A stretch of DNA of 57,644 nt, from contig QPGO01000032.1 of NCBI GenBank assembly GCA_008632985.1, positions 1 to 57,644 of the forward strand, in the 5' to 3' direction. Below, piece by piece: positions 1 to 57,644 of the stretch (position 1 is the stretch's first letter; every line of letters starts with the position of its first letter). Source of the stretch: Psammoneis japonica (Eukaryota). Below the pieces are notes generated by a model. That model worked only from the letters and a program-made list of their open reading frames with translations. It was not told the DNA's origin and made no database searches. Made by a program: the position numbers and the translations under genes.

Positions 1-1770
1 CAGTCAAAAACAAACCAGCCACCCATGCTGATTCTCTCACATTTGCTCCAGCCTCATGCAACGCCTTGTCAACCATGGATTCACCTTCAGCCACCAAACT
101 CAACTGGCATCAGGCAATGACACAAACAACAACTTTTTGTTTTGCCCAACATGCACAGAACAAAATGAGTCAAACAAATGATGGCAGCACGCGGTTGTCA
201 CACTGTTGACTGCAAAGGTGAGCAACAGCACCCAACTGACAAACACAGCTCCTCCAGCACCAAGCTTCTGCAGTGGAACAATGGCTCAAGCCACAGCACT
301 CTTGGCAATGAGAGCACATTGTCAAATGAAAGCAGTGCACAGCTGTTGCCAACAGTTGTCCAAAAATCCATTCCAAACACCATTGGGTTCCAAGAAGTTG
401 AGCACCAATCGCACTGCCCAATTGCTGCGGCACAGGTTGTGGAATCCAATGACTTCCTCAGATCCCAAATTGACTTGAGTTGCATCTGACAATGAGGCCC
501 ACCCCCTGCAGCTCCAAAAAAGCATCACAAAGACAAAAACAGCAAAAGTGCCATTTGCACTCACACCACTGCCTCAGCAAACAGAGTGCTCATTGGCAGT
601 GCAATGTGGCAACACTGCTGCTGCACCTGCCCTCTTGTGATCAGCTGGAGGCTCTGTGGAGTTGGCGTTGTTCAACAAGGTGACCCTCAAAATTTTTTTG
701 AAGCCCATGTTGCTCACAAAGTGTTGGCACTGTCAGCTGCAAAGTGCCGCTGCTTTGTTCTAGAAAATGCAAAACAAAAAGGCTGCTGGTGGTGTGAGCA
801 AAACAATGTGCCAAACACAGCCAGCTCCTGTGCACCACAAAAACCACTGCATGACAAGACACGCACTCCTTGCACAGCAGAACACTTCAGTTTCTTGCCA
901 TGGGGCCACAGTGGATGCGCTTCAGTTGCAGAAAAGGCAGGGGTTCAACAGGATGGAGTCAACATCAGCTTTGAAGTGATTGTTGCATGTGGGTGAAACA
1001 AGTGCTGTTGTTGCCAATGGTGGTTGTTGACTTTGTGCACTCATCATTGGAAAAGCTCCTGAAGCTGCACCAGGCAGTTGGGCAGCAGCTGATTTTTTGG
1101 ACAGGACAGCAGAAAAATCCCCAGAAAGCAAAGTTGAGCATCACAAGCACCCCCGTGTGGTTTTTTGTTGGGTCGCTCAAGGCTGCCACTCATGGTGGCC
1201 TGCTGAGAATCACACAGATGTCCTCTCCACCCTCCTTGGCTGCTTTCAACAACAACATCAACAAATGCTCCTCTTGAGTGGCTCAGCATCACCCACTTTT
1301 TCATTCTCTCTCTTTTAGACCCCTGCTCTTTCCCTCCAGCAGCCAGCGAAACCACCCTCGCTCCTGCACCTGAGCCAGGCTCCCTGCTTGCCACTGGCAT
1401 TTTTGTCATCATCTTATCTTGTGGAGCCATTGCTGGTTCCATCTCACTTTCTCAGCCAGCTCTGAAGGGTCTTCCGCATCTGCACTGTGGCTTTGCTGCC
1501 TTTTTTTTTGGGGGGGGGGGGGAGAGCCTGCAGCAAGGACAAACAGAGACTGGATGGGAGTGCGAACAGGAGCCAGGGGTCTTGTCTGCCATGACTTTCA
1601 TGGCCTTTTGTCGTGGCTTTTGCGACCCATCATTTCCACCGCGACTCCTTTGGCCAGGCACCATTTCAACTGCGTGCTGGATTGCGTGCTGCCTCCCGAC
1701 TGGTTTGAAGATTTCTTTTTTTTTGCACTGCACAGCTTTGTGCATGTGGCTGGCAATGTCACCCGTCGTG
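1..1770. repeat. TpA/CpG-depleted degenerate repeat or TE-like block
   Basis: About 3 TpA by eye (761, ~1316, ~1415) in 1.77 kb, few CpG, and abundant TG/CA. TpA returns abruptly at ~1775. No recognisable protein. Confidence 0.65.
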
Positions 1771-16759: not shown

Positions 16760-18180
16760 CTGTTTGCACCCCACCCAAGGTTCAGATGGTGATGAATGAG
16801 TCAACATGAACATCAATGTGACCCTTGCAGTTTTCTCAAGCGTGCATGTGTTGGATCTGATCGAAGGTTGTAAATGTTTGTTCATGGCTCCTTTTTCTTC
16901 TTGCAATCGTTGCTTTTGCAATCTGGCCCAGCTCACACATTTTGAGAGTCCTTGCAACACTTGAACATTGGTCTTCTGACTGGTCACCAAAACAGTCATC
17001 ATTGAGTGCAGCAGCTTGTTCCAAATTTTGTCCATCTTGCAAAAATTTTCTCATCAGGTCATGTTTCTTTAAAGCCAGGGGCAGACTTTACTTGCTTGGG
17101 ACACTCTCAAAGACTGCAGCGCAAATGCAAAGTCATGCACGTTCTTGGCACCTGATGCTGTGGGCAGCAGATCTTTGCTGTTGCAAGTGTGAAAATTCAC
17201 TTTTTTTGAGCTCGTCTGGACACTCACATGATGGATTTTGAGCTCTTGCTGCCACTTGGTCTGAAGAAAAAAGCACACAGGATGTCATTTTTGTGCGCCA
17301 TTTAAACACTTGTGTTCAAAGAAGGGCAGGAGGCACTGTGGACAATGACACGAGATGACACAGAAGCTGCAGAGTGCAGTGTGCTGGGCATGTTTCAGGC
17401 ACATCTCTGGGGGCAGCAGCTGTTTCCAAAGAATCTTGTGGAGAACTTGCAGCAAAACATGGACAGTTTGGAGAGTTTCATTTTTGGTGCACCACGCATT
17501 TTCGTGCAGCGTGTGCACACACCACATGCAAACTTTTTTGCGCCGCTGCTCTGTCGTGCAGTTGTGACTTGAGCCATGAAACAAAGCTGAGAATTGCTCT
17601 CTCAGCCATGTGCCAATGAGCAGATGCACCCCTCCTGCTGTGCTCAACAGCACTGTGAGAGCTGCTTTTGCTCTTGCACCCAACGCATCAGAGAAGCAAT
17701 GGCGCAATCTTGCAGCAAGCATTTCTCTCAATGTGGAGCACAGAAAACTGGTGCCATTGTGAGTGTTGGGGGGTGCAAGCATGCCACACAATGCTCTGAC
17801 AAAGCAATGGCTGTGTGAAAGCCTGGGCATTGTTTGAAGTGTGCAACAGGATGCAAGCCGTGTGCATCGTGCACTCCACCAGACAAGAAACAACAGCGCC
17901 GCCATTGAGTGCACGACTCGAGCCTTGCCCCCAGCTTCTCTTGCATTGGCACACATGTTTGTGACAATGCTGTGGCAAGGCACCCACCCAAGTGAGCCAT
18001 GAGAAATCAAGAGATGCAGCACAATTCATTGTGATGAGAGAGGGCCGAGGCACTCCGGCCATCCACACAGCCTGTGTTGAGGAGGGTCGAGCAGCAAGAA
18101 CAACACAGCACAGCTGAACACACCACAAAAGTGGATGATTGTGTTTTTTCAGAAGAAGATGCACAGCCTTCCAGCAGCCT
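16760..18180. repeat. TpA/CpG-depleted degenerate repeat or TE-like block
   Basis: Only a handful of TpA, strong TG/CA enrichment, and spurious Cys/His-rich ORFs in all frames. Confidence 0.6.
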
Positions 18181-28289: not shown

Positions 28290-28499
28290 TTAAACCGTGG
28301 AAGGTCCATTCGCTGACCTAGTCTTAAAGTTCCCGACGCAAGGAAGTTGTTCGTCGATCATTGCCTGGCACACGTTAGTACGGAGTGATGGATCATCGTG
28401 AAAACATTATGGAACATCGTTGACACTTGTCGCAGAAGATTTGATTTGCTAGGTATAATTAGGATCAAGATGATGTCACATTACACGCATTTATCTTCT

Positions 28500-30200
28500 C
28501 TGTCCACTTGAGACATGCTTTTCATTCCATTTCGAAATCGGATTCAAGAATCTCGAACCAACATTGGGATCAAGCTTTCCTTGACCCACAGGAAAGCATT
28601 TTTTCTACATTCACTATTTTGGGAGCAAAAAACTCACAATGCTGTAGACAGGTGTTGAGGAGCATTTCACGAAGTCCATCGACACCCAGTCCGGCCTGGT
28701 CGAGCTTCCCACACAAGGTGGTGACGCAATGTCCTCCACAGTGCCTTTTTTTATCATCATGTGCCTTTGGCTGTGTGAAAGTTCTCATGAGCTCCTTGAA
28801 AATCTTGGGTGGCTTGTTAAATGAGGAGAAATGCTCTGAGTCCATTGTGGTGTTGCAAAATTACAAAGCAGACACAAGTCTCTGTCAGCGGCATGCAATT
28901 CCCTGTTGTCTCTGCAAAGAAGAAAGCAACTCAGCCAAACACTTGTCAACTTGGACACACAGTTCTGCATGGTTGGCTGGCTTCCATCCATGGCTTCAAG
29001 GTTGGGCACTCAAATTGCCTGTGGCACCCAAAAGATCCAACACAATGTGCTCTTCTTCTCTGCAACACAAATGTTGTTGTCAGAAATTCCATCAAAGAGG
29101 GGAAACATGAGAAAAAGCATTGAAAACAGCTGGAGTCTGAGTCATGAGCACAGATTCGCCAGCATGGTCTTTGATGCACTGGGTGCTTGAAGTGTCATTG
29201 GCAAGAACTGTGTGGGGTTAAAGAAATTTGTCATGTCCTCCTTGAGGAGCATGCCCTTTGGGCTCCAAATCTCAGAAGGCTTGTCAACCACAACTTGGGT
29301 GTTAACTTTGAACTTTGATGACGAGCACTCCACCAACTGAGAATCTTTCTTTGGCAGGATCATGAGAGAAAGCACTTCAAAAACCTGCCACTCCCAGCCC
29401 AATCACTTGTTTCTCTCTGGCTTCTCTGCGCATCTTTTGGGGGGCAGCACACCCAGATCCTCACAAGCCAACATGCTGTGTTCATCCACATGTGCAGGCA
29501 TCATGTGGGCCACAATGTGCAGCAAGTCAACAGTGTGCAGCAGAAAACATGCAGAAGTGTGCATGACCCTGCTGGCATCTTGGCTTTTGTGCCCTGAAGG
29601 GTGCGCGCAAGCAGATCCTGCACAGAAGTTGCCACATTGTGGGGAAACAAAGGACGAACAATGGACTTTCTGTCTGAGGAGTTTGTGCAGCACCTGCACA
29701 AACTGTGAAACTTGAAGCAAAAAGTGCATTTTTTAAAGGTCTTGTTTGGTGTCCAAGCATGTTTTGTGTATCTCAAGAGCACCCTCCCGTGGCAGCGCTG
29801 TCGGTCACACTTGGCTGTTTTCCTTTACACCAGTGGAGAGTGACTTTCAGAAAAAGAGACCTTGGCATGCTGAACTTCCTTGCTCCTCACCTCTGCTTGC
29901 TGCTCAATGACTGTGACACAGCGCATGTCATGGTGAAGGGCGGAGAAGAAACATCTGATGAGTGTGAACTCTTTCTCATTGAGTGCGACCGGCCGAGCGA
30001 AGCGGAGCGATCGAGCTCTTTGGATCACTCGTCTTGCCGTTGGTCGGATGAAGGCACTGCTTGCGCCATATTTTTTTTTTGCGTTCCGCCGGCGGCTGAG
30101 GTGGCGGAATTTATTTCTCGAGGTGTTCGTCGGCGCGTTGTTTCTGGGGAGAATCGTCAAGATGTTCCTCTCCCGATGAGAGCTTCGGTTTGATGAATTC
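28500..30200. repeat. TpA-depleted degenerate block with a decayed minus-strand ORF
   Basis: Sparse TpA. Fragmented protein-like ORFs at 29825-30160, 29142-29402 and 28570-28845 of unrecognised family. Confidence 0.5.
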
Positions 30201-32699: not shown

Positions 32700-34990
32700 C
32701 GTCCGTGAACGTCCGCGAAGCGAAGTTTCTCTCGCCACATTTTTGGGCCGGTGGAGCTTTTTTTTTTTCAGCACAGTGCTGCCCTGCCCTGATGCTGTGG
32801 TGGCAACTCAGCTCTCTTGATGCAAGCAGAGCAGCAAGATGCCGGACTGAGAAGGGGAGCATCAGGAAATTGTGGGGTCCAAGGAGTTGGGGGCAAGAAC
32901 ATGGCCAAAAGCAAAGATGGGCCAGCACCACATGGGAAAAAGACTGAAGCGAGAGAGGGGAGTCTGCAGCAGTCAAGTCATCCATGTGACTCCAACAGGG
33001 TGTGCCTTTTCTGTTTTTTCTTCATTTCAACCAGATGTTTGCTTCAAAACATGTCAAGTTGTGTTGACATGTTTGCCACACTGAGCCCACCTTTTTGTTT
33101 TTGAGATGTGCCACACAGACAGCGTCAGCTGAAGAGCTTCCAACACTTGTTGCAGAAGTGTGGCCTCTCATGTTTGCCTCAAAACATGTCAAGTTGTGTT
33201 GACATGTGGTGCCAGACTGAGCCTGCCTTTGAATTTCTGGCATGTGGTGCCAGATGGCATCAGTTTTTTTTTGGCACAGTTGCTCACCTTTTGCCATGGT
33301 GCCCTTTGCTGCATGTGCACACACTGTGCTGCTTGGCCAATTTCTTGACATTGCTGGGCTGAGAGGATTTCCAAGCTGCTGGCCACAGCAGTCCAGGTGG
33401 TGACTTCAAGGGATTTGAGCCTTGTGACAAAAATGGAAAATGTCATCAATTTCTTCACCTCTGTCTGTGTTTGAAAATGTGCTTGCCACGCAAGTCAAGG
33501 CTTTTGGAGTGACGCTTGTGCAGATGACTGGGGCTTTGACTTCAGTTTGTCAGTTTGCAATGTGAGCAGCTGGGGGGAGGGGGGGGGAGTGCACAGTGTA
33601 ACCTTTGCTGCTGGTGGTGACATGTGCTGCTTGGCTTCACAACAAGCAAGCATGGCTTCTTTTCACAAAAAACCACTGCAACAAGCTGCAGTTTGCAAGG
33701 GTTTGCTGCATGCAATTGCCCTGCTTCTTGTCTCCAAATTGACCTGACCACATTGCTCTTGGCTGCATTGTTCATGTTGCTGCTGTTGCGATTTGCTCAT
33801 GGCTTTGGCCACAAGTGATTGCAAGCCCTTGTTGTTTGACAAACGCTTCGCCGGCAACAACAACTGCAGCCAACTTTCATTCCATGTCTTTTCCATTGCG
33901 ATGTCAAACAAAATGCTGCAACAAGCTTCCACATCAAATGCATCACAACTCACAGCCATGCATCTGGACTTTTTTGGAGACACAAAAGGAGCTGCCCCAG
34001 CTTCCTTGAACAGTTGTTTTGTTGGCCCCTTTTTTGGCAGAGAGAACAAATGACATCAAATCTTGACATGTTGGTGCTCTTCCTCCATTTGCCCATGTGC
34101 AAGCACATTGGATGGAAAATTTCACAAGGTTGAAAGTCATTGCCTTCTGGCAGTGCAGAGATCATGACACAATGACCCCAGCCTGGCATCAGTGTGCAGC
34201 AGCATTTTCCACATGACCACCACCAATGCTGCACAAGCTCAGCTCATCCACAAGAGCAGCCACACCACACTCTCTTTTCCTCAGCATGTGGCAAAACAAA
34301 GTGGTGCTTTGCTCCTGCACATCTTTGCTTCTGCAACAGCATCATTTTGCAACAAGAGCCAAGGTGCTCTTTTGTGCAACTTGCTTGTTGTGTGGAGCCA
34401 GCTCTGCACACAAAAGGGGCAAGCACAGCCACTCGGCGGGATGTTGCCTGCTTCATTGGTGCACAGGCTCCACATGACAAGAGAATTTGTGCAGCAGATG
34501 GATTGTCAGGGCAACACACCCAAAAATGGGGTGCGAAGCTGCTGGACTGTTTGCCAACCTTGCCCTGGGAACTCAGCAGTGCTCACAACAACACATTTGA
34601 GGCCTCAGTCGGCCATGCCTGCTCAAGCCCAAATGTGTGTTGCTTTTTTCAATGGTGCAATGGGACAATTTGGGTCAGCTCCCTTTTGGAGAGCACTGCA
34701 AACATCTCTGCAGTTTCCATGCTCCAAATGAGCTTTTGGGAGTGACAGGCCAGCATCTTGGCCGGGTGTCAAAGACAGCCTGCCCCATCACATGATTGCT
34801 TTGCCATAGTTGTGACAACCAAGTGTGTGGTCTGTCTGATTGTCAAGCCAAGTCAAGCAGAAGTGTCAAGTGACACACCTCATGCCAGTTTGCAGTTTCA
34901 AGCTCTGGCAATCGCTGTTCGTGTCATCGCAGGCGTTGTCTCGGCGGTGCACCGACGTCGCACTGACAAGCTGACAACATCCACACATTT
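32700..34990. repeat. TpA/CpG-depleted degenerate repeat block containing duplicated hairpins
   Basis: About 2 TpA by eye (~33599, ~34807). The inverted repeat ACATGTCAA-gttgtg-TTGACATGT occurs twice (33047-33074, 33184-33207). Confidence 0.65.
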
Positions 34991-38800: not shown

Positions 38801-38834
38801 TTCTACCAAACTTGCGGTGACCAACACATTTCGG

Positions 38835-43381: not shown

Positions 43382-45722
43382 TTAACGGTCCACTCTTTCG
43401 ACGTCGATACAAGCCGAACCGATACTAGGGATTCTTCTGTATGATTCCAAGACAGTCTTAGCTACGGCTTGAGCCATCTTGACGGGCACCGCATTTCCAA
43501 GCTGCCTTCTCTGCTGCTGCCTTGAGCCATAGAGGACAAAGCTGTCCGGAAAAGAAAACAACCGTGCAATTTCACGACATGTCAACTTCCTATCGAGCTT
43601 GTAATGCCACACGTCTTCGCTTGTGCAAATGGTAGTTGACGGACTGTTGCCATCAATTCGTTTGTCGTCGGTACTCATTTCCTGCTCACTGCTTTCGTGG
43701 TTGTGAACAATCCCGTTTCCCAGCTTGACAAGCCCACCGCGATGTGGAGGTGTCGTCTCCAAGTCCACCAAAGCCTGTTGAACCGTCACATGATGCTTCG
43801 GTGTTCCTGGTCCGTGGGTTTCCTGTGGTCGCTTGGGAAGAGGGAATCCAGCTTTTGCGATGAACAAGAACAACCGAAAACGCGTTTGCGGATCACCGTA
43901 GTCAGCAGCGCAAAGCTTCGTTACTCGGACCTGGTAATTCATAGCGAGCAAATCGCAAACTAGTTTGATCAAGTGTTCATGGTTCGATTCTCTAAGCATG
44001 CCCGAGACATTCTCAAAGGTAGCTGTCGTTGGCTGAAAATGTTCTACAGCTCGAGACAGACAATGGCAAAGAATATTGTTTTCTTCGCGATCGTCATCAG
44101 ACCCAAGAGTGTTTGCAATTGAGTAGCCTTGACAAGGGGAACTTGCATGTATATGGTCGGGCTCCTGAGAACGAAAAGGGACAAGGAGGTAAGCAGTGCA
44201 TCAAACAACACACAATGAAGCAGGCACTTTAGATACCTCTTGGGATGGATAGCCTGGCTGGCCATTTTCGCAATCTTCGAGAAATTCGTTCGAGTCGCGA
44301 GCGTAAGCGATTCCTCGAGTAGCAAGAGAAGCTTGTAAGTTGACGTCCTTGTCTACCATCCAGCTTGCACCGAAGCCTTCTCGCTCGAAACCGAGGCTCA
44401 TGCCGCCTACGCCTGAGAACAACTCGAGCACTACATGGATATTGAGATGGTCAGATTTCGACGACATGAACGGTAGCACTCCAAAGACTTTACTCGCTTC
44501 ACTCACCTCTGGGCTTCTGTACGGCGCACTGTTTCATTACTTCCTTATCAATTTTTGTCTCGAACGCAAAGTCAAAGTTTGACTGTCTGTGAGTTTCAGA
44601 AGTGAACTGAAAACCTGAAGGAGTGCGCTGCTCTAGTGCTTCCGCCAAATCAAAATAGTCCGGAAACGTTTGTTTACGCAAGGTTCTCGCTTCCTCAATT
44701 ACAGCAGGGTTAAGATCCTCGTCTCGAACCCACGTAAGCTGCTTGTAATCGCCTTGCCATTTTATCTTGTATTCCCATTGACCTTGACGCCGCTGTCTGC
44801 AATCAACGACTTCTTCGACTTCGTATACATCAGAATGGTCTGTAGTCAAATCGTGTCTCGTACCTTGAATATCACTCGAATCTGCAGTGTCCCAATTTGG
44901 ATTCTCTGCCTTTTCCTTCGTCTTGCGTTTCTTTGTTTTCCCGGCGCCGTCAGTGTCACTTGTATCCATAGCGTCGCGTTTTACACTCTTGCCCCTTTTG
45001 GGTTTTGGTAGTATTTTTGTTTTCCTGGTGGCTGCAGTGCCGGTTGCAGCTGCAGAGTCTCGTTTTACACTCTTGACCTTTTTGTTTGCCGCAAGCTTGC
45101 TTGTTTTCGCTGCATCCTTCTTTTCTTTCGGCGGTCGGCGTCGACGCAAGAGATGACCCTCAGTAGCCGACGAATCATGCACCTCGTCACATGGAAGAAT
45201 AGCATATTCACCGAGGACGCCTTTCCTTACACCGTCCCATCTAACAAGCACCTCGTCCGCAGCCACAACGAGGGGCAAGCGCAAGGCGGCCAAATCCACT
45301 GTAGAAGGATCGACGACAGCACAAGTATAGCCCTGTTTTGTCGTAAGCACTGCGCCGGGCGTGAAGGAACTTTTCTTAGATTTGAATTCTTGAATTGATG
45401 CAACAGCCTTGATATCTTCAATCTTTACTTTCTTTCTCTTCTTTGCTTGCTTCTTTCTTGACTTGAGAGGCTCTTGTTTGATTTTCTTTTGCTCAAACCC
45501 TAGCTTCGTTGGGGGTTGCCTCTGTCGGGACGAGCGACTGTTCAACGATGGAAGAACCACCGCACTCTCCTGTACGACATTAATTGTGTTTCTCCACGGA
45601 GCCTCTTTGTACTTGACAAGCATCTGACCAGGTTCAAGGTCATACTCCTTGTGCAAAGCAGGATCCACAGTGATAGCCGGGTGAGCACTTTCTACGAGTA
45701 CTTCAGTGCCATGATCCATCAT
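43382..45722 (-). CDS. Chromodomain-containing C5 cytosine DNA methyltransferase, RID/DNMT4-like; exons 44507-45722, 44237-44430, 43382-44164
   Basis: Chromodomain YEVEEVVD...EYKIKWQGDYKQLTWV. Motif I LELFSGVGG, IV HASSPCQGYS, VI FENVSG, VIII PQTRFR, IX RKLTCREIARL, X QLGNAVP. Introns 44431-44506 and 44165-44236 give an intact frame. Confidence 0.92.
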
Positions 45723-46029
45723 GGTGTTTCGGCTTGGCGTAAGATAGGAAAGATACTCAGCACTCCAGTAGCAGGCTTATCGGTAGTTCCCCAGTTACTA
45801 GTCACTCAATGACAGAGCGCAGAGCGCGAGATGGGAAACGCAAATTCAACCCCCGCCCTCTGACTGAGCCGCACCGTTAGCTACAACAAGGAGCGTAGCG
45901 TATCTTTTTAGTTTATGGTCCGGTCACGTAGGTAGCTCCGAGTTTATGAAAAAAAAAGAGAGGAAAAGGAGGAGGGGAGGAGAAAACGCCATACGTTCAA
46001 TTCGCACGTACGACGGACAGACGTTTTAC

Positions 46030-48090
46030 GACATTCATGCTGCTGCAACAAAAACAAACCAACCATGATGCGGCAACAACCGATGTTTGATCTTGCCACC
46101 AAACCTTTTCCTGCCAAAAATGTCAATGCATGACATCCACATTTTGCTGTGACAAGTGTGTCAATTGCAAGAGACGTGAGAGAAAACCCAAAAATGAACA
46201 ACAAAAGCTCCTTCCTGCAGCTGTGCCGCTGCCCAGACTGCACATTTTCACAACTTGCACAGCAACAGCCAATGTTCTGTTTTTGCTGCCAAACCTTTCC
46301 TGCCAAAATTGCCAATGATCAGCATGCTGTGCTGTTTCTCTTTGGCAAGTGCGCCAGCGAAAAGAGAGGCACAGCAGGAAAAAACCCAGGCAAGCGGGGC
46401 AAACGCAAAGGCCCTTTGCGCGGTTTTGCCACAAGGCTCAGGCTCTCAGCTCTCACAGCTTGTGCACTTCAATTTGAGTTTGCACTTGGCAGATTGAAGG
46501 CTGACTTTCAGCAATCAGGTGTCAGGTTCTGCTGTCACACTGTGCCTGTGAGCAGCAGCGCCAAGGTTGCTTGGCAATCCAGCAGCCAGCTCTCTGTGAA
46601 AAATGGTTGCAAAAGGAAAGGATCTGCCTGCTGCAACACAAGAGACAAGCAATCAAGAGTGCATTTTCCTGTGGTTTGGTGTCAAAGAAAATGTGCTTGT
46701 TTGTGGTGCTGTGCTGGCAAGGCCAGCTGCGAGGCACAGCCCAGCCAGCCAGCCGCCGCCAGCACAGCCAGTGGGTGCTGGCCTCCTCTCATGATGTTGG
46801 CATTGGGCCACATCATGCAGCTGTGCCACCACAGTCAAATGACATTTCTGCCAGCTCTGCATGAAAAAATGATTGCAAAAGGAAAGGAGCCATCTGCGGC
46901 GCAAGAGACAAGCAGCCGCCAAGCTCCCCCCATGGCGGCGGGCTGCTTGAAGTGCTGCAGCAGCTGTGCTCTGTGCTGGCCATCCAACAGAGATGAGTGG
47001 ACCACAATGTTGGCTGCAAGATGAAAGGACTGTGTTGGTCACAACTGGCGCCAAACAAGTGCGGGAAATTTTCCTTTCATCCGAGGGAATTTGGGGGCTG
47101 CTGAGAGAGGAGCCCCCCCCATGACCCAAAACCCCGCTCATGCTCACATCTTGATTTCCCCCTCATTGGCTTGTCAAATGAAGAAAACAATGAGGCTTTC
47201 CTCTTTTGTTTTGTTGCACAATGTGCACCAGATTTGCCACACCAATTTGAGCTTTTGTGGGCTTGCTTGGAGCAGATCACACTTGAAGAGACCATGGAAG
47301 CACATCTTTTTGTCCTTGAGAAAGTGCCTCCCAATGGTGCCTGCCTCACTCACTGAGTGCATCACACAAAAAGAGGTGTTTTGGCAGCCAAAGGCTCTGT
47401 GCAAATCAACTTCTAGATGAGTGGTTCATGATGGTTGCAACCACGCATTGAATCACTGATCTGTTTTTTCCTTTTCTCATTTTCTTGCATTTCCTTGTCT
47501 AGGAAATTCAGCGCCAAATGAGGAATTCCCTGTGATCGAAAACCTGTGACAACGCGGTGATTGGCACGCTGACAATGATTCCGTCTGTGGCGTCGCTGTC
47601 AAATTTGCACTGGAAAACCATGTGGGTTTCTGCTTGTCGCTGTCAAAATGGAATTGTGTCATTGTCAAATTCTGCACAAACCCTGGTGCATTTCCTACAC
47701 AGTTTATAAAGAGCTGCCTGCGCAGCTGGACGATTGCCGTTTCCTGCACGAGGCATCGAAAAAAATGTGGCCGCAACGTGAGCAAAGACTTCACAACACA
47801 TAATTTGCGTGTGCAGAGTTAAAGACACATTTTTCGTGCATTTAGTTGTTCAAACATGAATTTACTGTGCAAGGTTTTGGCGGGAAATTTTGTGTTAGAA
47901 TTGGTTCCTCCTTTGTGGTGGGAACTCTGGACACGAAGTGAGGAGGTGTGGAACCCGGGCTGGTTTGGATTGCCATGCGCGCGAGCATCAAATTTTAGAG
48001 CTTTGATCTTTACTTGCCACCAATCATTTTTTAAAAAATTCTCACGCTTAAATGATGGGTTCGCAATCAATCAATGTGCGACGTAATTCT
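46030..48090. repeat. TpA-depleted repeat block with internal imperfect direct repeats
   Basis: 46070-46130 resembles 46260-46320, and 46587-46652 resembles 46852-46915. Almost no TpA before ~47400. Confidence 0.6.
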
Positions 48091-48428
48091 ATGTTTATGT
48101 TTTAATGTTATGTCAAAAAATGGCGATTTAATTATTGTATAAGTGTATGGATATATTATAATAAGAGACGTGGGTTTCCCCTTCTTTTTGATAATTCTGG
48201 TGTGATCGTTCTATGGTAGATGATAAGAGAACTGTCCTGACGTTGTGTGTCACTGGTTGCTGAGTGTGTCTGTCATTGTAATAATGTGCTGACATCGATT
48301 TATTAGATTAGACCCTTTGTTTTCTATCGGTTGTTGCCGGGCACGCCTGCAAGCCCGCGCACAAAGCTTGGAACATTTTCCAAAATGTAGAAATGATTCC
48401 CACATGCAGTGTCAAAATGTTCCATGTG

Positions 48429-51400
48429 TCAATTGGACTGCAAAATGTCGTCACACTGTTCGTTGGTGAAGCATGTGACACTTTTTCCTTCCATCAACCG
48501 GAGCAGGGTGTCATGCCCGTCCGGCAGTCTGCACAGACTTAAATCTCTCTTCAGCGGTTGCCGAAGATGCAGACCATTTCTGGTCTTGACCCTGGAGAGC
48601 ATGACATGTGCCCAGTTTTGTGCACAGCTCCAGCTGTGTACAAACACATTGTGACACCGCTTCCTTGAAGCTTGTGTCCTGCAGTCGCATTGTTTGTTGT
48701 GAATGGCAATTGGGTCACTTTCAGTCCGAGCACATGTTTCTCTTTTTCCTCAGCTGTCATCTGTTGGGTTGGGTCCTTCAAACAGGCTTTGAAAGTGGAA
48801 GACTTAGGCTTGAGCAAAAAGGTGGGTGGATCGATGCTTTTGTTGCTGTGCTTGAGTTCTACATTGTCCACCTGGGATGCTGTGACACCTCGAATGGATG
48901 TTCCACAGTCCAAGACCACTTGCGATGAATGTTCTCCTGGTTTCAGCACGACTTTTGCCACAGTTGCTTGTGTTCCATTCGCAATGCCATTTGCCACATT
49001 TTCATTGCACGGGATCACAACTCTACATCCCTTGTGTGTTCGTAACACTGGATCAAGCCTGCCAGATTGCATTTCCACATCGCTCTCTCCACAGTTTTTC
49101 CAGAATGTTTTGTGCACCGGGAAAGGCCTGTGCTGTCTTGCTCCGTCACGCACTTGTAAATCGTCACTGAAAATGGCTAGAGAGTCCAAGACTTCTCCAT
49201 CTCTTTGGTGCAGTCTCTTGGTCCTTTCCTCAAACAAGGCTGTGTTGATGGAGTCTCTTTCTTTGTTTCTGCATGGTGCACATTTGATGTTCTCTGGCAG
49301 TTGCTGACCCTTTCTTGCTGCTCTTTCATTGATTTTGTCGACATCTTCGAGAGTCGCTTCGCCATCTCTAAATCGTTTTAGCAAACTGCCCCATTCTGGA
49401 TCCTCACTGAATCTGTGCATCCCATGCAACTGGATGTGGCAGTTCACCCATTCCTGGAATTCGGCACAGGTCTCCTTGTGTGGAGGGTGCATTCCGTGTC
49501 CAACTGGCTCGAGTTGTCTTAGGTCCCCTGCAAACACCATGTCCACACCCCCACAAGGCCTGTCTAAATTGGATTTCACGACAGATAGATTAGCATGTAA
49601 TTTTTCTAAATCTCTTCTGCAAGCAAATGACATTTCGTCGACAATCAGCAGACGAGTGTCACTCCAGCTTTCCATTTGTGTTTCTGTTGTTTCTTTTTTC
49701 CTGTTTGGATGGGCAACTCTGTGAATGGTGTCTCCTTTCAGAATTGTCGCTGCAACTCTGGTCATGGCAGTGACAGCAATTGTTTGTGCAGTGAATGGTC
49801 GTTCAATTAAAGAGCAACATTCTCTTGCGTGCAAAACAACAAGATCGATGACAGTGGATTTGCCACTTCCTCCTGCTCCATGCAAGAAACAAATTAACTG
49901 TGTGCCTCTTCGTTCTCGCACTTCAACTAACTTGGCTAATCTCCTGCATTCTTTGTTAAATTCGTGTCCAATTCCTCCTCTTACATTGCCACTTGCTTGT
50001 TCTCCCAGAGCGTCTTTGCAGCACGTCAAAATGAAAGTTCCTGCCATGACTTCAAAAGCACGACTTTGATGTGGGTCTAGCTTGGCTTTTTTTGACCAAT
50101 CAACTGAGCTTTTGGCTGAGCCGTCAGCTTCAAGGACATCAACGGCTTCTTCCGAATTAGTTGTGTCTTGGAAAGATCGTCGAATGCGTCCAGTCTTGGT
50201 CAGCAACACTCGAACTACATCTCGTTTCCTAATTTGAGGCATGGGTTCTTCATCTGCTTGCATGCTGTTTTCATTGTCTTCTTCATTGACCTCAATTTCT
50301 GGTGGCTCCATTGTTTCTACGACAGGGACCGAATTGATGACAGTGTTTTGATCTGAAGAAGCCATGCACATGCATGCCAAGTGCTGACATCCTGCAAGGT
50401 GACTTCCCTTCTGTCTGGTTTGTTTGCCACTTAAATTCGTGGGTGCGGCTGCTTCATCATTCGCTTCTGTCCCGTCTTCGTGTTCATGGTTCACCAATTC
50501 ATCTAGAAGAGCATCAAGCATTTGTCCTTGCAAAGCCGTTCCAATGTCGTCTTCGGTGTCGCTTTCGCACCTTGCACTAAATTCATCATCGTCCGATGCA
50601 TGCTCACGGGTGGTGCGTTTGAGAAAATCTGATGTGCTTTTTAATCGCAGACAATTGGATTTTGCATCTTGCAGATTTTGCAAGAATTTCAGATTTCTTC
50701 AGTGACGATTTCTCTCTCCACCGCTTGACGGAATGATTGCAAGCAGGTTTGATCGAACAGTCGCACATCTGAGGCAGTCCGACATGATGTGAACAAAGCA
50801 AGAGCTGGCTTGCAACATGGCTCTTTTTCAGGCAAGGATGGTGCATTGCTGTCCATGAGAGAACTGCCGAATTTTGCTGCATCTGGGAAATCACACTGGT
50901 GTGTCTTAACCAAGCGAGTGTCTTGTCTTGGTTTGATGCCTTGCAGAAATCTGTTTGATCTTCTTTGACAAGATGGATGGGTGCAGGTGGAGTTGTCGAA
51001 TTGGCAAAGAAGACCTTCATTTTTCTTGGCATTTNNNNNNNNNNNNNNNNNNNNNNNNNNNNNNNNNNNNNNNNNNNNNNNNNNNNNNNNNNNNNNNNNN
51101 NNNNNNNNNNNNNNNNNNNNNNNNNNNNNNNNNNNNNNNNNNNNNNNNNNNNNNNNNNNNNNNNNNNNNNNNNNNNNNNNNNNNNNNNNNNNNNNNNNNN
51201 NNNNNNNNNNNNNNNNNNNNNNNNNNNNNNNNNNNNNNNNNNNNNNNNNNNNNNNNNNNNNNNNNNNNNNNNNNNNNNNNNNNNNNNNNNNNNNNNNNNN
51301 NNNNNNNNNNNNNNNNNNNNNNNNNNNNNNNNNNNNNNNNNNNNNNNNNNNNNNNNNNNNNNNNNNNNNNNNNNNNNNNNNNNNNNNNNNNNNNNNNNNN

Positions 51401-54297
51401 NNNNNNNNNNNNNNNNNNNNNNNNNNNNNNNNNNNNNNNNNNNNNNNNNNNNNNNNNNNNNNNNNNNNNNNNNNNNNNNNNNNNNNNNNNNNNNNNNNNN
51501 NNNNNNNNNNNNNNNNNNNNNNNNNNNNNNNNNNNNNNNNNNNNNNNNNNNNNNNNNNNNNNNNNNNNNNNNNNNNNNNNNNNNNNNNNNNNNNNNNNNN
51601 NNNNNNNNNNNNNNNNNNNNNNNNNNNNNNNNNNNNNNNNNNNNNNNNNNNNNNNNNNNNNNNNNNNNNNNNNNNNNNNNNNNNNNNNNNNNNNNNNNNN
51701 NNNNNNNNNNNNNNNNNNNNNNNNNNNNNNNNNNNNNNNNNNNNNNNNNNNNNNNNNNNNNNNNNNNNNNNNNNNNNNNNNNNNNNNNNNNNNNNNNNNN
51801 NNNNNNNNNNNNNNNNNNNNNNNNNNNNNNNNNNNNNNNNNNNNNNNNNNNNNNNNNNNNNNNNNNNNNNNNNNNNNNNNNNNNNNNNNNNNNNNNNNNN
51901 NNNNNNNNNNNNNNNNNNNNNNNNNNNNNNNNNNNNNNNNNNNNNNNNNNNNNNNNNNNNNNNNNNNNNNNNNNNNGCCACAAACTCTGGGTTTGTCCAG
52001 TGTTTAGTGCAATGAGGGCAATGTGCGAACATGCCGTTTTTTGATTTCTGACCATGCTTGTGCCTTGGGCATCGAAGCTGCTGATCACTGACTGTTTTAG
52101 GCACAGTGCGACAGGCAAGATTGACAGTGCAATCATGATCAAAAGTCTCTGTGATGGAAAGTCGAGTGTAATCCTCGCTGCATGTCAACCCAGTTGTGCA
52201 GATCCGACTGGTCAGTTTGGATGGTGTTCTTTTACCATCACGCCTAAAATCTCTGTTGTCAGAATGCAGATTGTCTCTTGCTGTGTTCATGTCTTCAAAC
52301 CATGCCTGAATGTGACCGTGTGCCGAGAGTCTACCTTGTTCTTCCATTGCAGCCATGAAAGCGGAGGGTCTCCCCATGTAGAACTCAAAATCTTCTCTGG
52401 GTGAATTCCTTTTTAAGTCCCATCCCATTGCTTCTTCTATGACGATTTCCAACAACATTTCGAATGCAAAAGCCATGACACCCGGGTGCTCCACACGAAG
52501 CTCGTTTCTTGCCTCAGCCTTTTCGGTTGGTTCTTCATCCGACATTTCTGTCACATCTCTGCCTTTGTCGACGAGCATGTCCGTGTGAATTTGAGCTAAA
52601 AAGGAACTGGCATCATCGGGGCTTGTCGTTAAAAATGCTCCAGGTTGTCCAAAGTGGCGTTGGCAGGTTTCAGCATTTCTTCTCATTTTTTTTGCTGCTT
52701 CATTTGCATGTGGAACAGATGCCGACACCACATCCACTGCACTTAAGAAACGATGTCCCAATGCGCAATTCCTGCGTTCACCGGTCTGTCTGTCACACAT
52801 GGCACGGTCGACGTCGTCTTGTGTCAGTTCATTTGAGAATTGTCTGGCTTGATTTTTGTCTCTTGCTTTCCATCCAGCACTGTGCACCATTCGTTGCTTC
52901 ACAGTCAGATTGCACAGGGTCAGAACAAAGAGTTGCTTGTGGAAATGGGGCTGAGAAATGCGGGCCAAGTGATCTGCGCAATGTGCTAGATTTGTGCAGT
53001 CGGCGAGACTCCCGTCTTCTTTCATTCTTGTTTCATTGATGCCGCCACGCCCACAAGGAAATTGCAGCAAGCAAGCATTCACCAGGTTGTTGTCCTCAAA
53101 GTCACTGACTGATTCTTTCAAAAGATCAGCTTTGAATTCAATGTCAAAACCGCTTGCAGCTGCATCGTGCACCAAGTCTTTGAAGCTGTCTAAATTGCGT
53201 TGTCCACCAGTTGTTGAAGAAACGGTGCCATCGGGGAAATGAACACTGCAGGACTCCGTGGTTTCAACGTTTGCATTTTCGCTTTCGTCCAAACTGCTGT
53301 TGTCCACTAAAACTGGATTCTGTAAATTACTTCGCACTTCCTCTAGATCGATGTCTTGATTCATCCAATTCTCGCGGTGATGGACAAGCCATTCCAGTGC
53401 TCTCATTACACAGTGAGTCCTGATTTTGTTCTTTTGTCTGGCCATTTGCCTTTGCTCTGGTGTCATTTTGCCGGACACCAACACAACCACATTTTGATGA
53501 AGGTTCAACACGTCAAAGTGCACAATGGTGCGGGCGATGCTCTTCATGTTTATCTTGCAACAGGAAAGACTGCCTTGCAGTTTCTTCTGTTTGCCACCGA
53601 CAAAACTGAAGCAGCAGCCATGTGTTTTCACAGGTGTCAACAAAGCCAGTTCTGCTTCGGCAAGACACGATAATTCAGGTGGTGGTGTTCCAAAACAGCA
53701 ATTATTTGCCATTGCGCATGGAGGCACAGAAGTGGTGCAGAGACTCCTTTTACAAGGCCTGCAACAAGTGAATCCTTCAGACCTTCTGTTGTCGTTCGGA
53801 ACAACACATCGAGCTCTTGGCAAAAGTGACAGGTCGGAAATCCATCGGCAATCCCGTGGAATGTGGTCGTCATCAATGCGACAACAATCGTGTGGGTCTT
53901 CCGACACTTGGTTCCATTCAGATGGAGTTGACAGGTGTCTGGCTTCTTTCAATTTATTGACAGAAAGTCGAGCAGTCTGAGACGGTTTCAACAATCTGTC
54001 ACACACCAAACAAACCCAAGGGACGCACTCGTTTCCATTCCTGCAACAAAGCTTCTCAAAACGTCTGTTCACATTGTCTCGGTGCCTGGTGTTGCTGTCA
54101 TCCACAAGACAGCTTGCAACGGCAGGCTCACACTGCGCAAAGACAAGTTGAACCAACAACGCAGCAACAGGTGCACACCAGATAACACGACGACCCATGA
54201 GACTTGTGATGAGAACAATCTGAGTAAAGTCAACATGATCAACAGATGGTGGACAATCCGACCTGCAACTGGTGTTCCCAGTCACTGCAGGGTCCAC
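48429..54297 (-). pseudogene. Helitron RepHel (HUH endonuclease plus PIF1 helicase); frameshifted, with assembly gap 51035-51976
   Basis: Rep motifs PGAFLTTSP and EEQGRLSAHGH. Helicase motifs GAGGSGKS, LIVDEMS, AGDLRQLEPV, MHRF, GHKLQG, HVMLSRV. Confidence 0.92.
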
Positions 54298-55182
54298 TTC
54301 CAGTGTTTTCTGGACTCAGCAGACGAGTGTGTGTAACAAATCTTCAGCATGTCAAGAGTGCAATGAACAATGATGAATGCGACATGACAAATCTGCAACC
54401 GGTGTTTCCCGGTCTCTGCAGACTCTGCGACCAGTGCATTCTGGTCCCCGCAGATGTTGTCTCAGCTGCAACTGGTGGTGCTTTGTGTCGAGATGGCTGG
54501 AGAGTCTTCCTTTGCAAAAGTTCAGATCTCATGAAAAATGAGGGTTGAAGCAAACTTCCGTGCATGATTGACGGACCCGACACGTTGTAGATCGCTCGTC
54601 TTGATTTACTTGACACGTCATCGTTTGCTCGTGCGTTCTACATTGGGATGCACTGCTGACAGCAGCGGCATCACACCGGTGAGGTTATGAACGTCAGCGG
54701 GAACGATGTCTTGTGGAAGTTCAATGTGCGATGATGCATCTCGTAGTTGAAGTCGGTTCTACCCACTGCGACTGTACGACGTTTGTGCGACTGTGACGCC
54801 TCACACCTCGATCTGCTGCCAAGTGTAACAGATGTGTGTTGTTGCAGTGTGTCCTCATGATCGGCACGTTCCTTTCATCCCACTTGTGAATCATGTCATC
54901 TCGCAATGCATGCACTGACATTGAATCATTCGAGTGAAAAGATTCCAAATTTTAGAAAGATTTCCAGCCACACCTTTCTTTCGCACAATTTTACGTAGCC
55001 TGTCATGCTGGTCCTTCTTTCCTGCGTCTCGCAGTGGAAATTGTACGCAACATGAGTGACGTGCCCACACGACCGTTGCTGCACGACCGCTGCTGTGTCA
55101 GCTCTTCGTGGGAGCTCAGTGACTGGTGACCTTGTTTTTGGCTCACAATTTTGTGCCAATCAACAACGAAAGACTTTGTAAG

Positions 55183-56052
55183 ATGGCCCGTAAAACGCAA
55201 GGTTCTACCAAGAAGTTGGGCGCTTCTCCAACCAAGAAACAGCAGTCTCCCATCAAGTTTTCTGCTTCCCTCATGAAAAAAATTACCCCTGCCAAGACCG
55301 TTGGTCTCAATGATGAAGATGTGAAGGCCGAAGATTTGTTGGCCAAGACGGGCATCAAGGTTACGAAGGTGTCTGGTGGTGCCGCAAGCGACACTGCCAG
55401 CAAGGATGCTAATCTACGAGTGGCCAAGATCACCGAAGGCAGCAAGCAAGGCTTGGCATTCCGTTTGGAGCCCAAGGGGACAGGTGACCCCTCCGGTGTG
55501 TGGGCAGAGAAAGTGTTTTTTGATGCCATGCGCTCAGGCAAGTCTTGGGTTGCCAATTCAGGGTTTGTGCCGCACACCAAGCAGTGGCACCACAACAACG
55601 CATCGATGAAGAATGGAAGGGATTGCTCCATTCGTCTCTTCGTGATTTACGTCGAGGAGACCCCGTCCGATGAACAAGTCAAGATGTTAGCCAAGTGCAT
55701 TGCTGCCAAGTTGAACAACGACCCGGACGACAACACTGCCGTTCACATTGAGGACGACTGCATCTGGATCCAGGATGGTGTGTGGGCCGATGTGATTGGC
55801 AACGACCAGGCTTTAACGGAACTCCATAAGGAGGGTGGTGACTTCCACTTAGGATGGCATGAGCAGCACAAGAACTTGCTTCACAGTTGCCTTCGAACGG
55901 GAACCTTGACCATGGATTTCTGCCGCATGATTGGTGCTCCAGCAGACGAAGCGGCTGAGGATCTTGATGAGGAAGATGGGGTGTTGCACGATGACCAGAT
56001 GTCTGATGACGAGGAGAACGACTTGCTGCTTTGCGACAGCGACGAGAACTGA
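55183..56052 (+). CDS. Unknown protein, divergent from RepHel; probable Helitron accessory or captured gene
   Basis: Open 289-aa frame with a Lys-rich N-terminus and acidic tail, inside the TpA-depleted domain. Only one Tyr. Confidence 0.55.
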   Translation: MARKTQGSTKKLGASPTKKQQSPIKFSASLMKKITPAKTVGLNDEDVKAEDLLAKTGIKVTKVSGGAASDTASKDANLRVAKITEGSKQGLAFRLEPKGTGDPSGVWAEKVFFDAMRSGKSWVANSGFVPHTKQWHHNNASMKNGRDCSIRLFVIYVEETPSDEQVKMLAKCIAAKLNNDPDDNTAVHIEDDCIWIQDGVWADVIGNDQALTELHKEGGDFHLGWHEQHKNLLHSCLRTGTLTMDFCRMIGAPADEAAEDLDEEDGVLHDDQMSDDEENDLLLCDSDEN

Positions 56053-56463
56053 GACATTTTTCCCCGGTCTGGCCTCCGCTCTTTAGTGCGCAGTGCAGCA
56101 TGTAAATGTTTAGTCCATTTGGTCAAACATTTTTTTTATTTACTTGGCAAGCAAGACTTGCATTGCGTGCGACTGTGGCAAATCGTGCACATTTAAATTA
56201 TGCACTTAGCAGTCATTGAATGCTGCATTCGTAGCCGGCTCGTTTTCTGCATGATTTCAAAATCAATTGGCACTCGTGTCTCAATTGTTGTGCACATCTC
56301 TTTTCTGACAGTGATTTCAAAATGTCATGTGTTTGGCCTGCCTGACTTGCATTTCCGGTTGTTTCCGCAAAGTCTGCTTTTCAAACTTTGTGCCAGTGCA
56401 CAATTCACCAAATGAGACTGAGTTGCCAATGCACGGCCTCAGCATGGCAGTGAGCCAGTGATG

Positions 56464-56750
56464 AAGCCATCCCACTAAGAGACCCAGCCCGGTGTTCACA
56501 CCTCAGACCCATCTCCTCTGGAGACCAGTCCACTGTGGCACCAGTGTCGCGGCCAATCTCATTGGGTCACTTTTTGCTGCTCCTTGCNNNNNNNNNNNNN
56601 NNNNNNNNNNNNNNNNNNNNNNNNNNNNNNNNNNNAGCCATCCCACTAAGAGACCCAGCCCGGCATTCATGCCTCAGACCCATCTCCTCTGGAGACCAGT
56701 CCACTGTGGCACCAGTGTTGTGGTTGATCTCATTGGGTCACATTCTGCTG
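56464..56750. repeat. Direct repeat, two copies of about 115 bp flanking an N gap
   Basis: agccatcccactaagagacccagcccgg...ctcattgggtcac occurs twice. Confidence 0.85.
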
Positions 56751-57038
56751 GTGCTTGGTGGTCACAGGGTGCAGTTGGCAATTGCAGGGTGCAGGGCACA
56801 GCAAATGCAGGGTGCGGCAAGAACCGCACAACTCACCGGTGCCATGAAAATGTGATGCATCAACACGGCAAGGGACACTGATGAAGTGGTCCCACACAAG
56901 GACCCAGCACACTGTGCCTTTCCCTGTCACATGTGTTTTGAGTGTGCAGTGGCATTGCTGCATGCTGCAGTTGTGGCCGTTGCTGCCGGAGGCTGGGAAA
57001 ATTTTCTTTTTTTTTGAACAAATCCCCCCAACATGTGA

Positions 57039-57290
57039 CACGTGCAAATCCTGCATGTCGTTCCTCACAACCCCTGTCAATGGCTCACTCGTTCGTGTGT
57101 GCAACACATGTGCGGAGTGCAACAGGGAAAAGATTCCTCTGTACGGTGCACAGCACAGCACTGGTTTAACATGTGATGCAGTGCTGCACTGCACGTGCAA
57201 ATCCTGCAGGTCGTTCCTCACAACCCCTGTCAATGGCTTGTTCGTTCGTGTGTGCAACACACACACGGAGTGCAACAGGGAAAAGATTCA
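57039..57290. repeat. Direct repeat, two copies of about 100 bp
   Basis: cacgtgcaaatcctgca...gcaacagggaaaagattc at ~57039 and ~57192. Confidence 0.9.
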
Positions 57291-57644
57291 TGCGGTGAAC
57301 CACAGCATTGGTTGATGCACGACACTGGATGAAAAAAAAATGGCACCACAAGATGTGCCATGAGTCACCCCAATCAGTCCGGCAAAGACAATGCCACCCT
57401 TGCGTCGCTTGGGAAAATGGTCGCTGTGAAAACAAGCTCCAATTGTGGGGGCAGCTTCATTCACACCTACAAGGCTCAGACGCCTTCTTCGTCGAGAGTT
57501 GCGGCACTGGCACATTTGATAAACAGAGAACCCGTAGCTAACGAAGGCAAGTGGTCTGCTGAAAAGATGATGCATCGAGCCAACAAAAAGGCTGCAAAGA
57601 TCGAAAGTCTAGAAGAACTGCCTGCACAGCTTGCGCGTCATTTC

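Follow-up and report, generated by a model that had tools for sequence, protein, structure and literature searches.

Conversion of TpA to TpG and CpA, with accompanying CpG loss, in a Helitron and other sharply bounded blocks of a Psammoneis japonica contig

How can a transposon lose nearly every tyrosine of its protein while its reading frames stay largely open? This question is raised by a contig of Psammoneis japonica (QPGO01000032.1 of GenBank assembly GCA_008632985.1, positions 1 to 57,644; this whole stretch of 57,644 nucleotides is hereafter designated the window), in which positions 48429–54297 hold a minus-strand Helitron of the RepHel type, with a coding region split by two frame breaks and one run of N. 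From the sequence alone, it had been proposed earlier (hereafter, the original prediction) that a process separate from the decay of methylated CpG converts TpA into TpG or CpA in this element and inactivates it by missense changes. We found that TpA has indeed been turned into TpG and CpA on both strands of the Helitron, that the same change marks further discrete blocks of the window, and that CpG has decayed in the same blocks. We consider it likely that these patterns reflect a TpA hypermutation of the type described in Bigelowiella natans (bioRxiv 10.64898/2026.01.13.699255), acting on a dead multi-copy Helitron in a silenced block, with CpG decay of the 5-methylcytosine type alongside.

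The dinucleotide composition of the Helitron departs widely from that of the neighboring gene DNA. Observed/expected ratios (O/E) in 48429–54297 were 0.17 for TpA, 0.60 for CpG, 1.70 for CpA, and 1.48 for TpG, against 0.60, 0.98, 1.11, and 1.17, respectively, in gene DNA at 3000–16000 and 0.52, 1.02, 1.17, and 1.13 at 35000–45500. In terms of counts, the local baseline predicts 190 TA and 270 CG for the element, in which 58 TA (Poisson p 3e-29) and 162 CG (p 7e-13) occur. The strong depletion of TpA claimed in the original prediction is therefore borne out (about 70%), whereas the accompanying statement that CpG is still fairly common holds only in relative terms, CpG itself being down by about 40%. 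The gene DNA between 3000 and 45500 is also rather low in TpA (O/E 0.52–0.60), every 1-kb window of it lying at or below 0.79. At the protein level, the Helitron translation contains only 3 Tyr in 1,609 residues (0.19%), with Cys at 4.7% and His at 3.9%, while the 12 host open reading frames (ORFs) of the window, comprising 4,861 residues, have 2.86% Tyr, 1.54% Cys, and 2.76% His. One of the three Tyr residues is in the out-of-frame tail, which leaves the two in-frame residues that had been counted before.

The direction of the change was derived from proteins and from the comparison of copies, without a nucleotide ancestor; a scan of metagenome contigs for close relatives of the helicase yielded none, and the relatives retrieved by a profile scan were at most 54% identical, too far for polarization at the nucleotide level. 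In an alignment of the helicase with the best 60 of 120 listed homologues (about 50% identical), which themselves contain 2.3–4.9% Tyr save for three Tyr-poor ones, all 10 conserved-Tyr columns were replaced in the window, by His in 6 and by Cys in 4, as compared with 58 changes among the 258 other conserved columns (Fisher p 7e-7). A second, cruder consensus, built by tblastn over fetched metagenome loci, gave 14 conserved-Tyr columns, none of which was kept: 10 had become His or Cys, 2 Phe, 1 Met, and 1 Trp, the last four being excluded from the later His/Cys tally. Conserved Tyr residues 232, 234, 421, and 610 of the Rep part read H, C, C, and H, and residues 42, 48, 73, 93, and 99 of the C-terminal helicase piece read C, H, C, C, and C; indeed, all readable conserved Tyr in the element have been replaced. 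The polarized outcomes amount to 9 His and 10 Cys; both strands are affected by the TpA change. The four altered motifs pointed out earlier were all present, with relatives carrying the predicted ancestral residue: Tyr stands at the His of HVMLSR in 25 of 25 relatives and at the Cys of FPCG in 18 of 30, PCGG corresponds to the consensus PYGG, and ATAGHKLQG to the consensus ATTGHKLQG, where the change falls at a T|A codon boundary. These results bear out the proposal of a separate process that turns TpA into TpG and CpA on both strands. The argument that CpG decay does not explain the loss of Tyr was also right, yet CpG decay proved to be a real companion in the same blocks.

A mass balance of the coding strand leads to the same conclusion. 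Relative to 8 intact relatives, the Helitron has lost 31.0 TA and 17.4 CG per kb and has gained 16.8 TG and 26.6 CA per kb, while the total of pyrimidine–purine (YR) steps is nearly unchanged (239 per kb in the Helitron and 244 in those relatives; TA+CG −48, TG+CA +43). The Helitron pattern is thus one of dinucleotide conversion and not of composition, and CpG loss makes up about one third of the YR turnover in the element (17/48 per kb).

Copies of the element carry a record of the same conversion. The family is abundant in one sequencing run (designated X1), where 1,085 contig pieces with 90–100% identity cover 45900–54400 and the summed word depths of the family reach hundreds to thousands; the fraction of sampled words of 48429–51030 present in X1 was 0.52. 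X1 copies differ from the window at 151 variant places, 141 of which are transitions. Of the 40 best-supported listed differences, 22 positions pair up as 11 CA<->TG doublets of neighboring bases (one of them re-paired by hand); at 3, the window has TG where another copy has TA, 4 are CpG-related, and 11 positions show other changes. A doublet of this kind is seen when a TA or CG of the ancestor has been altered on one strand in one copy and, independently, on the other strand in another; the process thus went on after the copies had separated. Similar doublets account for 6 of 13, 6 of 8, and 6 of 17 mismatches between direct repeats inside depleted DNA. X1 also contains a deletion derivative that lacks about 3.4 kb: in two contigs, of depths 61.9 and 123.6, position 48778 or 48782 is followed directly by 52181.

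The signature extends beyond the Helitron, being confined to discrete regions of the window with normal composition elsewhere. On a 1-kb profile, the gene DNA is broken up by islands, designated I1–I5 (Table 1), in four of which (not I3) TG/CA reaches about 1.9–2.0, with GC contents of 0.46–0.52 across all five; I4 begins about 150 bp upstream of a cytochrome-b5 gene. The multi-copy block next to the Helitron contains zero TA over 46200–47399, with CpG O/E of 0–0.32, and is separated from the element by an AT-rich spacer that holds its TA (29 in 48000–48399) and marks a sharp edge. On the other side, the depleted block at the right end of the window contains short direct repeats with CA/TG doublets between their copies. 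Block edges were sharp at 200-bp resolution. The islands and their flanks, compared by blastn and in a purine/pyrimidine alphabet, showed no mutual homology above a reversed-sequence control, with the sole exception of one tandem pair spanning a 48-N gap, and a Pfam search of 64 further ORFs and 18 long ORFs gave no match within the islands.

CpG loss follows the same boundaries. Over 113 windows of 500 bp, TA O/E rose with CG O/E (r = 0.74) and fell with TG/CA (r = −0.85), and the CpG deficit was restricted to the blocks that had lost TpA, as is expected of CpG>TpG/CpA decay in silenced repeats. With baselines assumed at 0.56 for TpA and 1.0 for CpG, the ratio of CG to TA log-loss was 0.40–0.57 in 8 of 10 blocks, including the Helitron and two of the metagenome loci described below (L004 and L073); the exceptions were I3 (1.3) and a third metagenome locus, L047 (1.45). 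CpG decay is accordingly a companion process in the same blocks.

The original prediction regarded the process as repeat-targeted, in the sense of fungal repeat-induced point mutation (RIP). This part was not borne out by a comparison with duplicates in normal DNA. The duplicates at 37100–37900 and 38800–39850 are 86% identical over 544 aligned bases and differ by 45 transitions and 31 transversions, only 2 of the 76 mismatches being doublet positions; those at 4600–6300 and 6800–8500 are 69% identical, with 12 doublet positions among 512 mismatches. Gene duplicates in normal DNA thus have ordinary spectra, and homology is not the trigger. In line with this, the AT-rich spacer at 48000–48330 is unmutated, and the main target in B. 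natans, as described in the main text of the preprint, is single-copy (bioRxiv 10.64898/2026.01.13.699255). Targeting follows discrete, sharp-edged blocks, not homology.

The TA sites that survive in depleted DNA reveal a preference for certain flanks. We compared 122 surviving TA in depleted DNA with 1,288 in normal DNA as symmetrized tetranucleotides, and expressed each context as its share in depleted DNA over that in normal DNA. ATAT was absent from depleted DNA (0 against 91 sites; ratio 0), followed by ATAC (0.10), ATAG (0.20), GTAC (0.56), ATAA (0.73), CTAC (1.0), CTAG (1.5), GTAA (1.6), CTAA (3.2), and TTAA (4.6). The preference at the base preceding the T runs A>G>C>T; read from the other strand, the base following the A would be ranked T>C>G>A, and as TA is its own reverse complement, the two readings (−2 and +1) are inseparable in survivors. 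Among the 19 polarized Tyr events, a preceding purine was found in 8 of 9 His and 6 of 10 Cys outcomes, a lean to a +1 pyrimidine that is not significant. The three depleted metagenome loci gave a similar trend, on 53 sites only. Surviving CpG, by contrast, showed no flank bias (0.76–1.49) and no effect of TCG. A flank bias at TA without one at CG is what a sequence-selective TpA enzyme combined with generic decay of CpG would produce.

The direction of the change also explains the open reading frames. Per kb of trinucleotide positions, normal DNA has 8.3 TAA and 8.1 TAG, the Helitron 5.5 and 3.6, and the islands 1.5 and 0.6, while TGA remained at about 19–22 throughout. Frames are kept open because the conversion of TA to TG or CA abolishes both TAA and TAG, and the only new stop it can create is TGA from TAA. 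The proposed inactivation by missense rather than by stop codons agrees with these counts, in that long ORFs remain, TAA and TAG are scarce, and TGA stops persist.

The same signature was met outside the window. Among 80 metagenome Helitron loci, three (L004, L073, and L047) have TpA O/E of 0.03–0.13 and CpG O/E of 0.12–0.46, whereas the other 77 have TpA O/E of 0.28–0.98. L004 (TpA O/E 0.03, 11 TA in 6.6 kb) retains a single unbroken ORF of 1,882 codons with 2 Tyr, 83 Cys, and 71 His, and its 23 conserved-Tyr columns read C in 13, H in 6, F in 3, and Y in 1. We considered whether a functional Helitron might have adapted to avoid TpA; this was excluded, as L004 and the window have both lost nearly all conserved Tyr. 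Among the 120 listed homologues, 7 proteins have Tyr below 1.8%, with His or Cys at Tyr columns differing from those of the window. Locus L043 was rejected as an instance of the signature, having TpA 0.28 but CpG 1.24, TG/CA 1.10, GC 0.55, and Tyr 1.4%. Three intermediate loci may be partly mutated elements or may come from hosts with another baseline: L002 and L026 have locus-wide TpA O/E of 0.36–0.37 and CpG of 0.51–0.53, and L018 has TpA 0.53 and CpG 0.55 overall, with normal composition from about 7.5 kb.

As to the identity of the element, a Rep/HUH endonuclease domain lies N-terminal to a PIF1-type helicase, the arrangement of RepHel proteins. Pfam matches in 51977–54315(−) were PF14214 Helitron_like_N (E 8.8e-11) and PF20209 DUF6570 (E 6.6e-15), and the HUH-like motif HGHIQAW aligned to the HxH of relatives; this Rep ORF is open for 779 codons with two Tyr. 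PF05970 (PIF1 helicase) matched 48551–50698(−) with E 1.8e-14, and homologues were found at E 1e-141 and about 50% identity. Full-length relatives have one ORF each, of about 1,500–2,010 codons, and both frame breaks of the window may be set against other copies: an extra base after 50693 in the sole other-copy contig there (depth 289.1/289.1, 1 contig) would restore register at the first, and an extra base after 48652 (depth 574.1/904.1, 2 contigs) would put the adjoining frames in register at the second. The gap in the alignment matches the N run. An imperfect G+C-rich palindrome may tentatively be taken as the Helitron 3′ hairpin, although its fold was not distinguishable from shuffles (z-score −1.41); a search for the termini (5′-TC ... 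hairpin ... CTRR-3′) did not locate the 5′ end of the element. Tandem Repeats Finder returned 0 rows for 45000–57644, and no RNA data set was listed as containing the element.

Table 1 Features of the window and their coordinates. Edges of the Helitron block are approximate.
Feature	Positions	Strand	Basis or remark
Island I1, saturated	1..1000		1 TA, 9 CG; O/E TpA 0.02, CpG 0.15
Island I2, saturated	16900..17900		O/E TpA 0.04, CpG 0.29
Island I3	28450..29600		O/E TpA 0.17, CpG 0.21
Island I4, saturated	32760..34700		O/E TpA 0.01, CpG 0.12; 1 TA, 14 CG in 1.9 kb
Island I5	45950..47100		O/E TpA 0.04, CpG 0.40
Multi-copy block adjoining the Helitron, near saturation	45950..47950		Summed word depth 896–1,962 in X1
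Unmutated AT-rich spacer between two hit blocks	48000..48330		O/E TpA 0.65–0.81, CpG 0.87–1.31
Hypermutated Helitron block	48330..54560	−	Edges placed where TA and CG density normalize (200-bp profile)
Imperfect G+C-rich palindrome	48350..48376	−	About 15–20 nt before block edge; fold z-score −1.41
C-terminal helicase piece, third frame	48429..48749	−	ORF list, tblastn consensus
PIF1-type helicase ORF, 715 codons	48554..50698	−	Pfam, homologues
Frame break 2, between motif V (ATAGHKLQG) and motif VI (HVMLSR)	48650..48655	−	Frames, other copies
Frame break 1, Rep versus helicase frames	50689..50698	−	ORF coordinates
Rep-frame ORF resuming past the N run, 114 codons, 0 Tyr	50692..51034	−	ORF list, Pfam
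N run, 942 N	51035..51976		Masks the Rep segment expected to carry the catalytic Tyr motif
Rep part of RepHel (DUF6570, Helitron_like_N, HUH motif HGHIQAW)	51977..54315	−	Pfam, alignment
Near-normal patch	54560–54800		200-bp profile
Depleted block right of the Helitron	54800..57644		O/E TpA 0.21, CpG 0.61

Two further coding stretches lie within or close to the hit blocks. Within the depleted DNA on the right, an ORF of 309 codons at 55123–56052(+) has 1 Tyr and an acidic C-terminus; it had no Pfam match and no counterpart in the 80 fetched Helitron loci, and is probably a hypermutated gene of another element. In DNA of normal composition, about 170 bp from the hypermutated block edge at 45950, the stretch 43385–45776(−) encodes a chromodomain ORF (44502–45776, PF00385) followed by pieces of a C-5 cytosine DNA methylase (44204–44533 and 43385–44200; PF00145, E 4.6e-36), the nearest atlas clusters of which are bacterial-type methylases. 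The position of this gene may be related to the CpG loss or may be a coincidence.

In the explanation that we favor, two dinucleotide-specific transition processes would act together in sharply bounded blocks of the host genome. One would convert TpA into TpG or CpA, that is, A>G at 5′-TA-3′ on either strand, most likely by means of an enzyme that deaminates adenine in DNA to hypoxanthine and is guided to the silenced chromatin of transposons or foreign DNA; the other would convert CpG into TpG or CpA, most simply by deamination of 5-methylcytosine in the same silenced blocks. The Helitron would have been disabled through missense changes, Tyr to His or Cys among others, with its frames staying open. 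The deaminase, targeting through chromatin, and a function in defense are what we infer from the pattern of substitutions. Several points weigh against this explanation. The TpA chemistry is deduced from DNA sequence. CpG loss here amounts to about half the TpA log-loss, whereas G:C>A:T changes are rare in the viral regions of B. natans; either the host differs, or the two systems are not one and the same. The coding strand has gained more CA than TG (about 61:39 for 48429–54315 of the window and 62:38 for L004), a mild strand bias. Multi-copy status was shown for 45900–54400 only, and X1 may be the very sample from which the window was assembled. Finally, I1–I4 have neither a Pfam match nor mutual similarity that would mark them as repeats or foreign DNA.

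Other explanations differ in what they make of the shared edges and of the strands. A bolder form of the above, which we regard as rather unlikely, takes the TpA and CpG losses as two outputs of one block-targeted DNA-deamination system, acting on A at TpA and on C or methyl-C at CpG. The system would belong to a lineage other than Bigelowiella and be common enough to leave its traces in environmental assemblies that are unrelated. Any marked transposon or foreign insert would be driven toward a sequence without TA or CG but with abundant TG and CA, its frames staying open, and a single machine, rather than two coinciding processes, would lie behind both the near-constant CG:TA log-loss ratio and the block edges common to the two losses. 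In a less probable alternative, a modified thymine or adenine at TpA in silenced DNA mispairs at replication with the same TA>TG/CA outcome; a near-constant ratio would likewise agree with two kinds of modified dinucleotide sharing a chromatin state. In sequence data, deamination of A looks the same as miscoding by a modified T or A, and the symmetry of the two strands at a palindromic target would suit a symmetric modification; on the other hand, full-text searches gave no report of such a TpA modification tied to this signature, the sole mechanistic proposal in print, in the main text of the B. natans preprint, is deamination (bioRxiv 10.64898/2026.01.13.699255), and an ADAT2 enzyme is described as deaminating both A and C in DNA (PMC10354150). 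In a further proposal, copies would arrive already mutated, through deamination of a single-stranded rolling-circle intermediate, as in the APOBEC model moved to adenine. TadA- and ADAT-type enzymes do act on single strands, as is generally known, and the depleted block coincides with the apparent extent of the element. We nevertheless hold this to be improbable, as the transfer of one strand predicts TA>TG there alone, whereas we found 9 His and 10 Cys, with more CA than TG on the coding strand; moreover, blocks without Helitron features are equally or more strongly marked, and the mutations in B. natans are reported to arise in place in integrated DNA (bioRxiv 10.64898/2026.01.13.699255).

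Nor do the data favor an untargeted, genome-wide instability of TpA and CpG that erodes unselected DNA, the blocks being merely old, which appears slightly more improbable still. The low TpA of gene DNA (O/E 0.52–0.60) would be in its favor, but block and normal composition shift within about 200 bp, a non-coding AT-rich spacer between two blocks keeps its TpA (0.65–0.81), the Helitron is young enough to retain 200 of 258 other conserved columns and yet has lost 10 of 10 Tyr, and L004, with essentially all TA lost, still has an ORF of 1,882 codons. ADAR-like A-to-I hyperediting of transposon RNA, written back by reverse transcription, would account for the TpA context through the 5′ U preference of ADAR to which the preprint refers (bioRxiv 10.64898/2026.01.13.699255). 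We judge it very improbable, as Helitrons are DNA elements without an RNA-copy step, the two strands are about equally affected, non-coding blocks are saturated, and the CpG loss would be left over. An artefact of sequencing or assembly, such as base-calling errors at modified sites, is scarcely credible: the window has N gaps and the sampled Helitron words were recovered from X1 only in part (0.52), but X1 contigs of at least 90% identity cover 28 of 30 bins, 333 of the 1,085 pieces reach 99% identity or more, diverged Helitrons in three independent metagenome assemblies carry the signature as well, and the Tyr to His/Cys replacements are coherent.

If hypermutation at TpA with CpG decay in the same silenced blocks is indeed what shaped the window, a heritable A:T>G:C hypermutation would stand as a counterpart of fungal RIP and animal APOBEC editing, and the window would represent the long-term end state of the process in a classical DNA transposon. 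Together with the environmental contigs, it would suggest that the process is not peculiar to one culture strain. CpG decay would be linked to the TpA process in the same blocks, and a first flank preference would be available for the enzyme. An activity of that sort, deaminating adenine at one defined dinucleotide of double-stranded genomic DNA, would be of interest to base-editing work. For annotation, the removal of TAA and TAG leaves dead elements of this kind with very long ORFs, which gene callers will report as proteins; these products lack Tyr and abound in Cys and His, and 7 of the 120 listed homologues belong to this type.

Compared with known systems, the process resembles fungal RIP in that context-specific transitions are concentrated in mobile DNA, the element is disabled, and block edges are sharp. 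RIP, which is set off by duplication, changes C to T mostly at CpA, so that TpA and stop codons arise and GC falls; unlike this, TpA is destroyed here (0.01–0.17), stops are removed, GC is about 0.47–0.50, and duplicates of 86% identity are untouched, so that neither C>T at CpA with an excess of TpA and stops nor a duplication trigger was found. The decay of CpG in methylated transposons shares with our blocks the CpG>TpG/CpA change and the lack of a flank bias, but is unable to remove TpA or to convert TAY to CAY or TGY. APOBEC3 and ADAR editing in animals is likewise a context-specific hypermutation of the deaminase type against mobile or foreign nucleic acid. Its substrates are single-stranded cDNA (C>U) for APOBEC3 and double-stranded RNA (A>I) for ADAR, and its results are heritable only through reverse transcription, whereas here a DNA transposon and non-coding DNA were changed on both strands. 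ADAR has in common with the present signature a 5′-U preference, as noted in the preprint (bioRxiv 10.64898/2026.01.13.699255). The ADAT2/TadA-type deaminases with DNA activity offer a further comparison. Their natural tRNA target, A34, always follows U33, which is a TpA-like context. Amphioxus BjADAT2 is described as deaminating both A and C in DNA, in the contexts 5′-GAA-3′ and 5′-TCG-3′ (PMC10354150), as against TpA and no effect of TCG among surviving CpG here. The window itself contains no ADAT2/TadA-type deaminase gene.

The nearest counterpart is found in B. natans. To our knowledge, a single preprint on one alga is so far the basis for heritable hypermutation of this kind (A:T>G:C at TpA in DNA), and full-text literature searches found no other description of this TpA signature. 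The remark in the original prediction that no described system was known to do this is superseded by that preprint, dated 2026-04-14, which describes A:T>G:C hypermutation at TpA only and proposes a defense (bioRxiv 10.64898/2026.01.13.699255; the statements that follow are those of its main text). The hypermutation concerns integrated DNA of nucleocytoplasmic large DNA viruses (NCLDV) and virophages. In mutation-accumulation lines, two integrated viral regions had a mutation rate of about 6e-7 per site and generation, which exceeds the background about 1000-fold, and 230 of 231 mutations were A>G or T>C, all of these at TpA. Genome-wide, 124 clusters are TpA-depleted and enriched in CpA and TpG; TpA-depleted coding sequences are enriched in DDE-endonuclease and reverse-transcriptase domains, transposons being suspected as further targets, and an ADAT2-like deaminase is proposed. 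Both systems share the change of TpA to TpG or CpA on either strand, the restriction to discrete regions, and the footprint of low TpA with high CpA and TpG, and the rule itself is followed here in 10 of 10 Tyr columns, in the mass balance, and in the CA<->TG doublets. They differ in the target, which in B. natans is integrated viral DNA and here a multi-copy Helitron together with blocks lacking domain matches, and in the spectrum, which in B. natans is nearly free of G:C>A:T (1 of 231), whereas CpG here is down to 0.60 in the element and 0.12–0.40 in the islands. The saturation of several blocks (TpA O/E 0.01–0.05) and the flank bias of the survivors also set the present case apart. The main text of the preprint makes no mention of CpG, GpC, Helitron, or tyrosine. 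The phenomenon itself has already been described in the B. natans preprint; the present case adds a Helitron as target, shows CpG decaying along with TpA at a roughly constant ratio, ranks the flanks of surviving TpA, documents an end state in which ORFs stay open, and extends the signature to environmental contigs.

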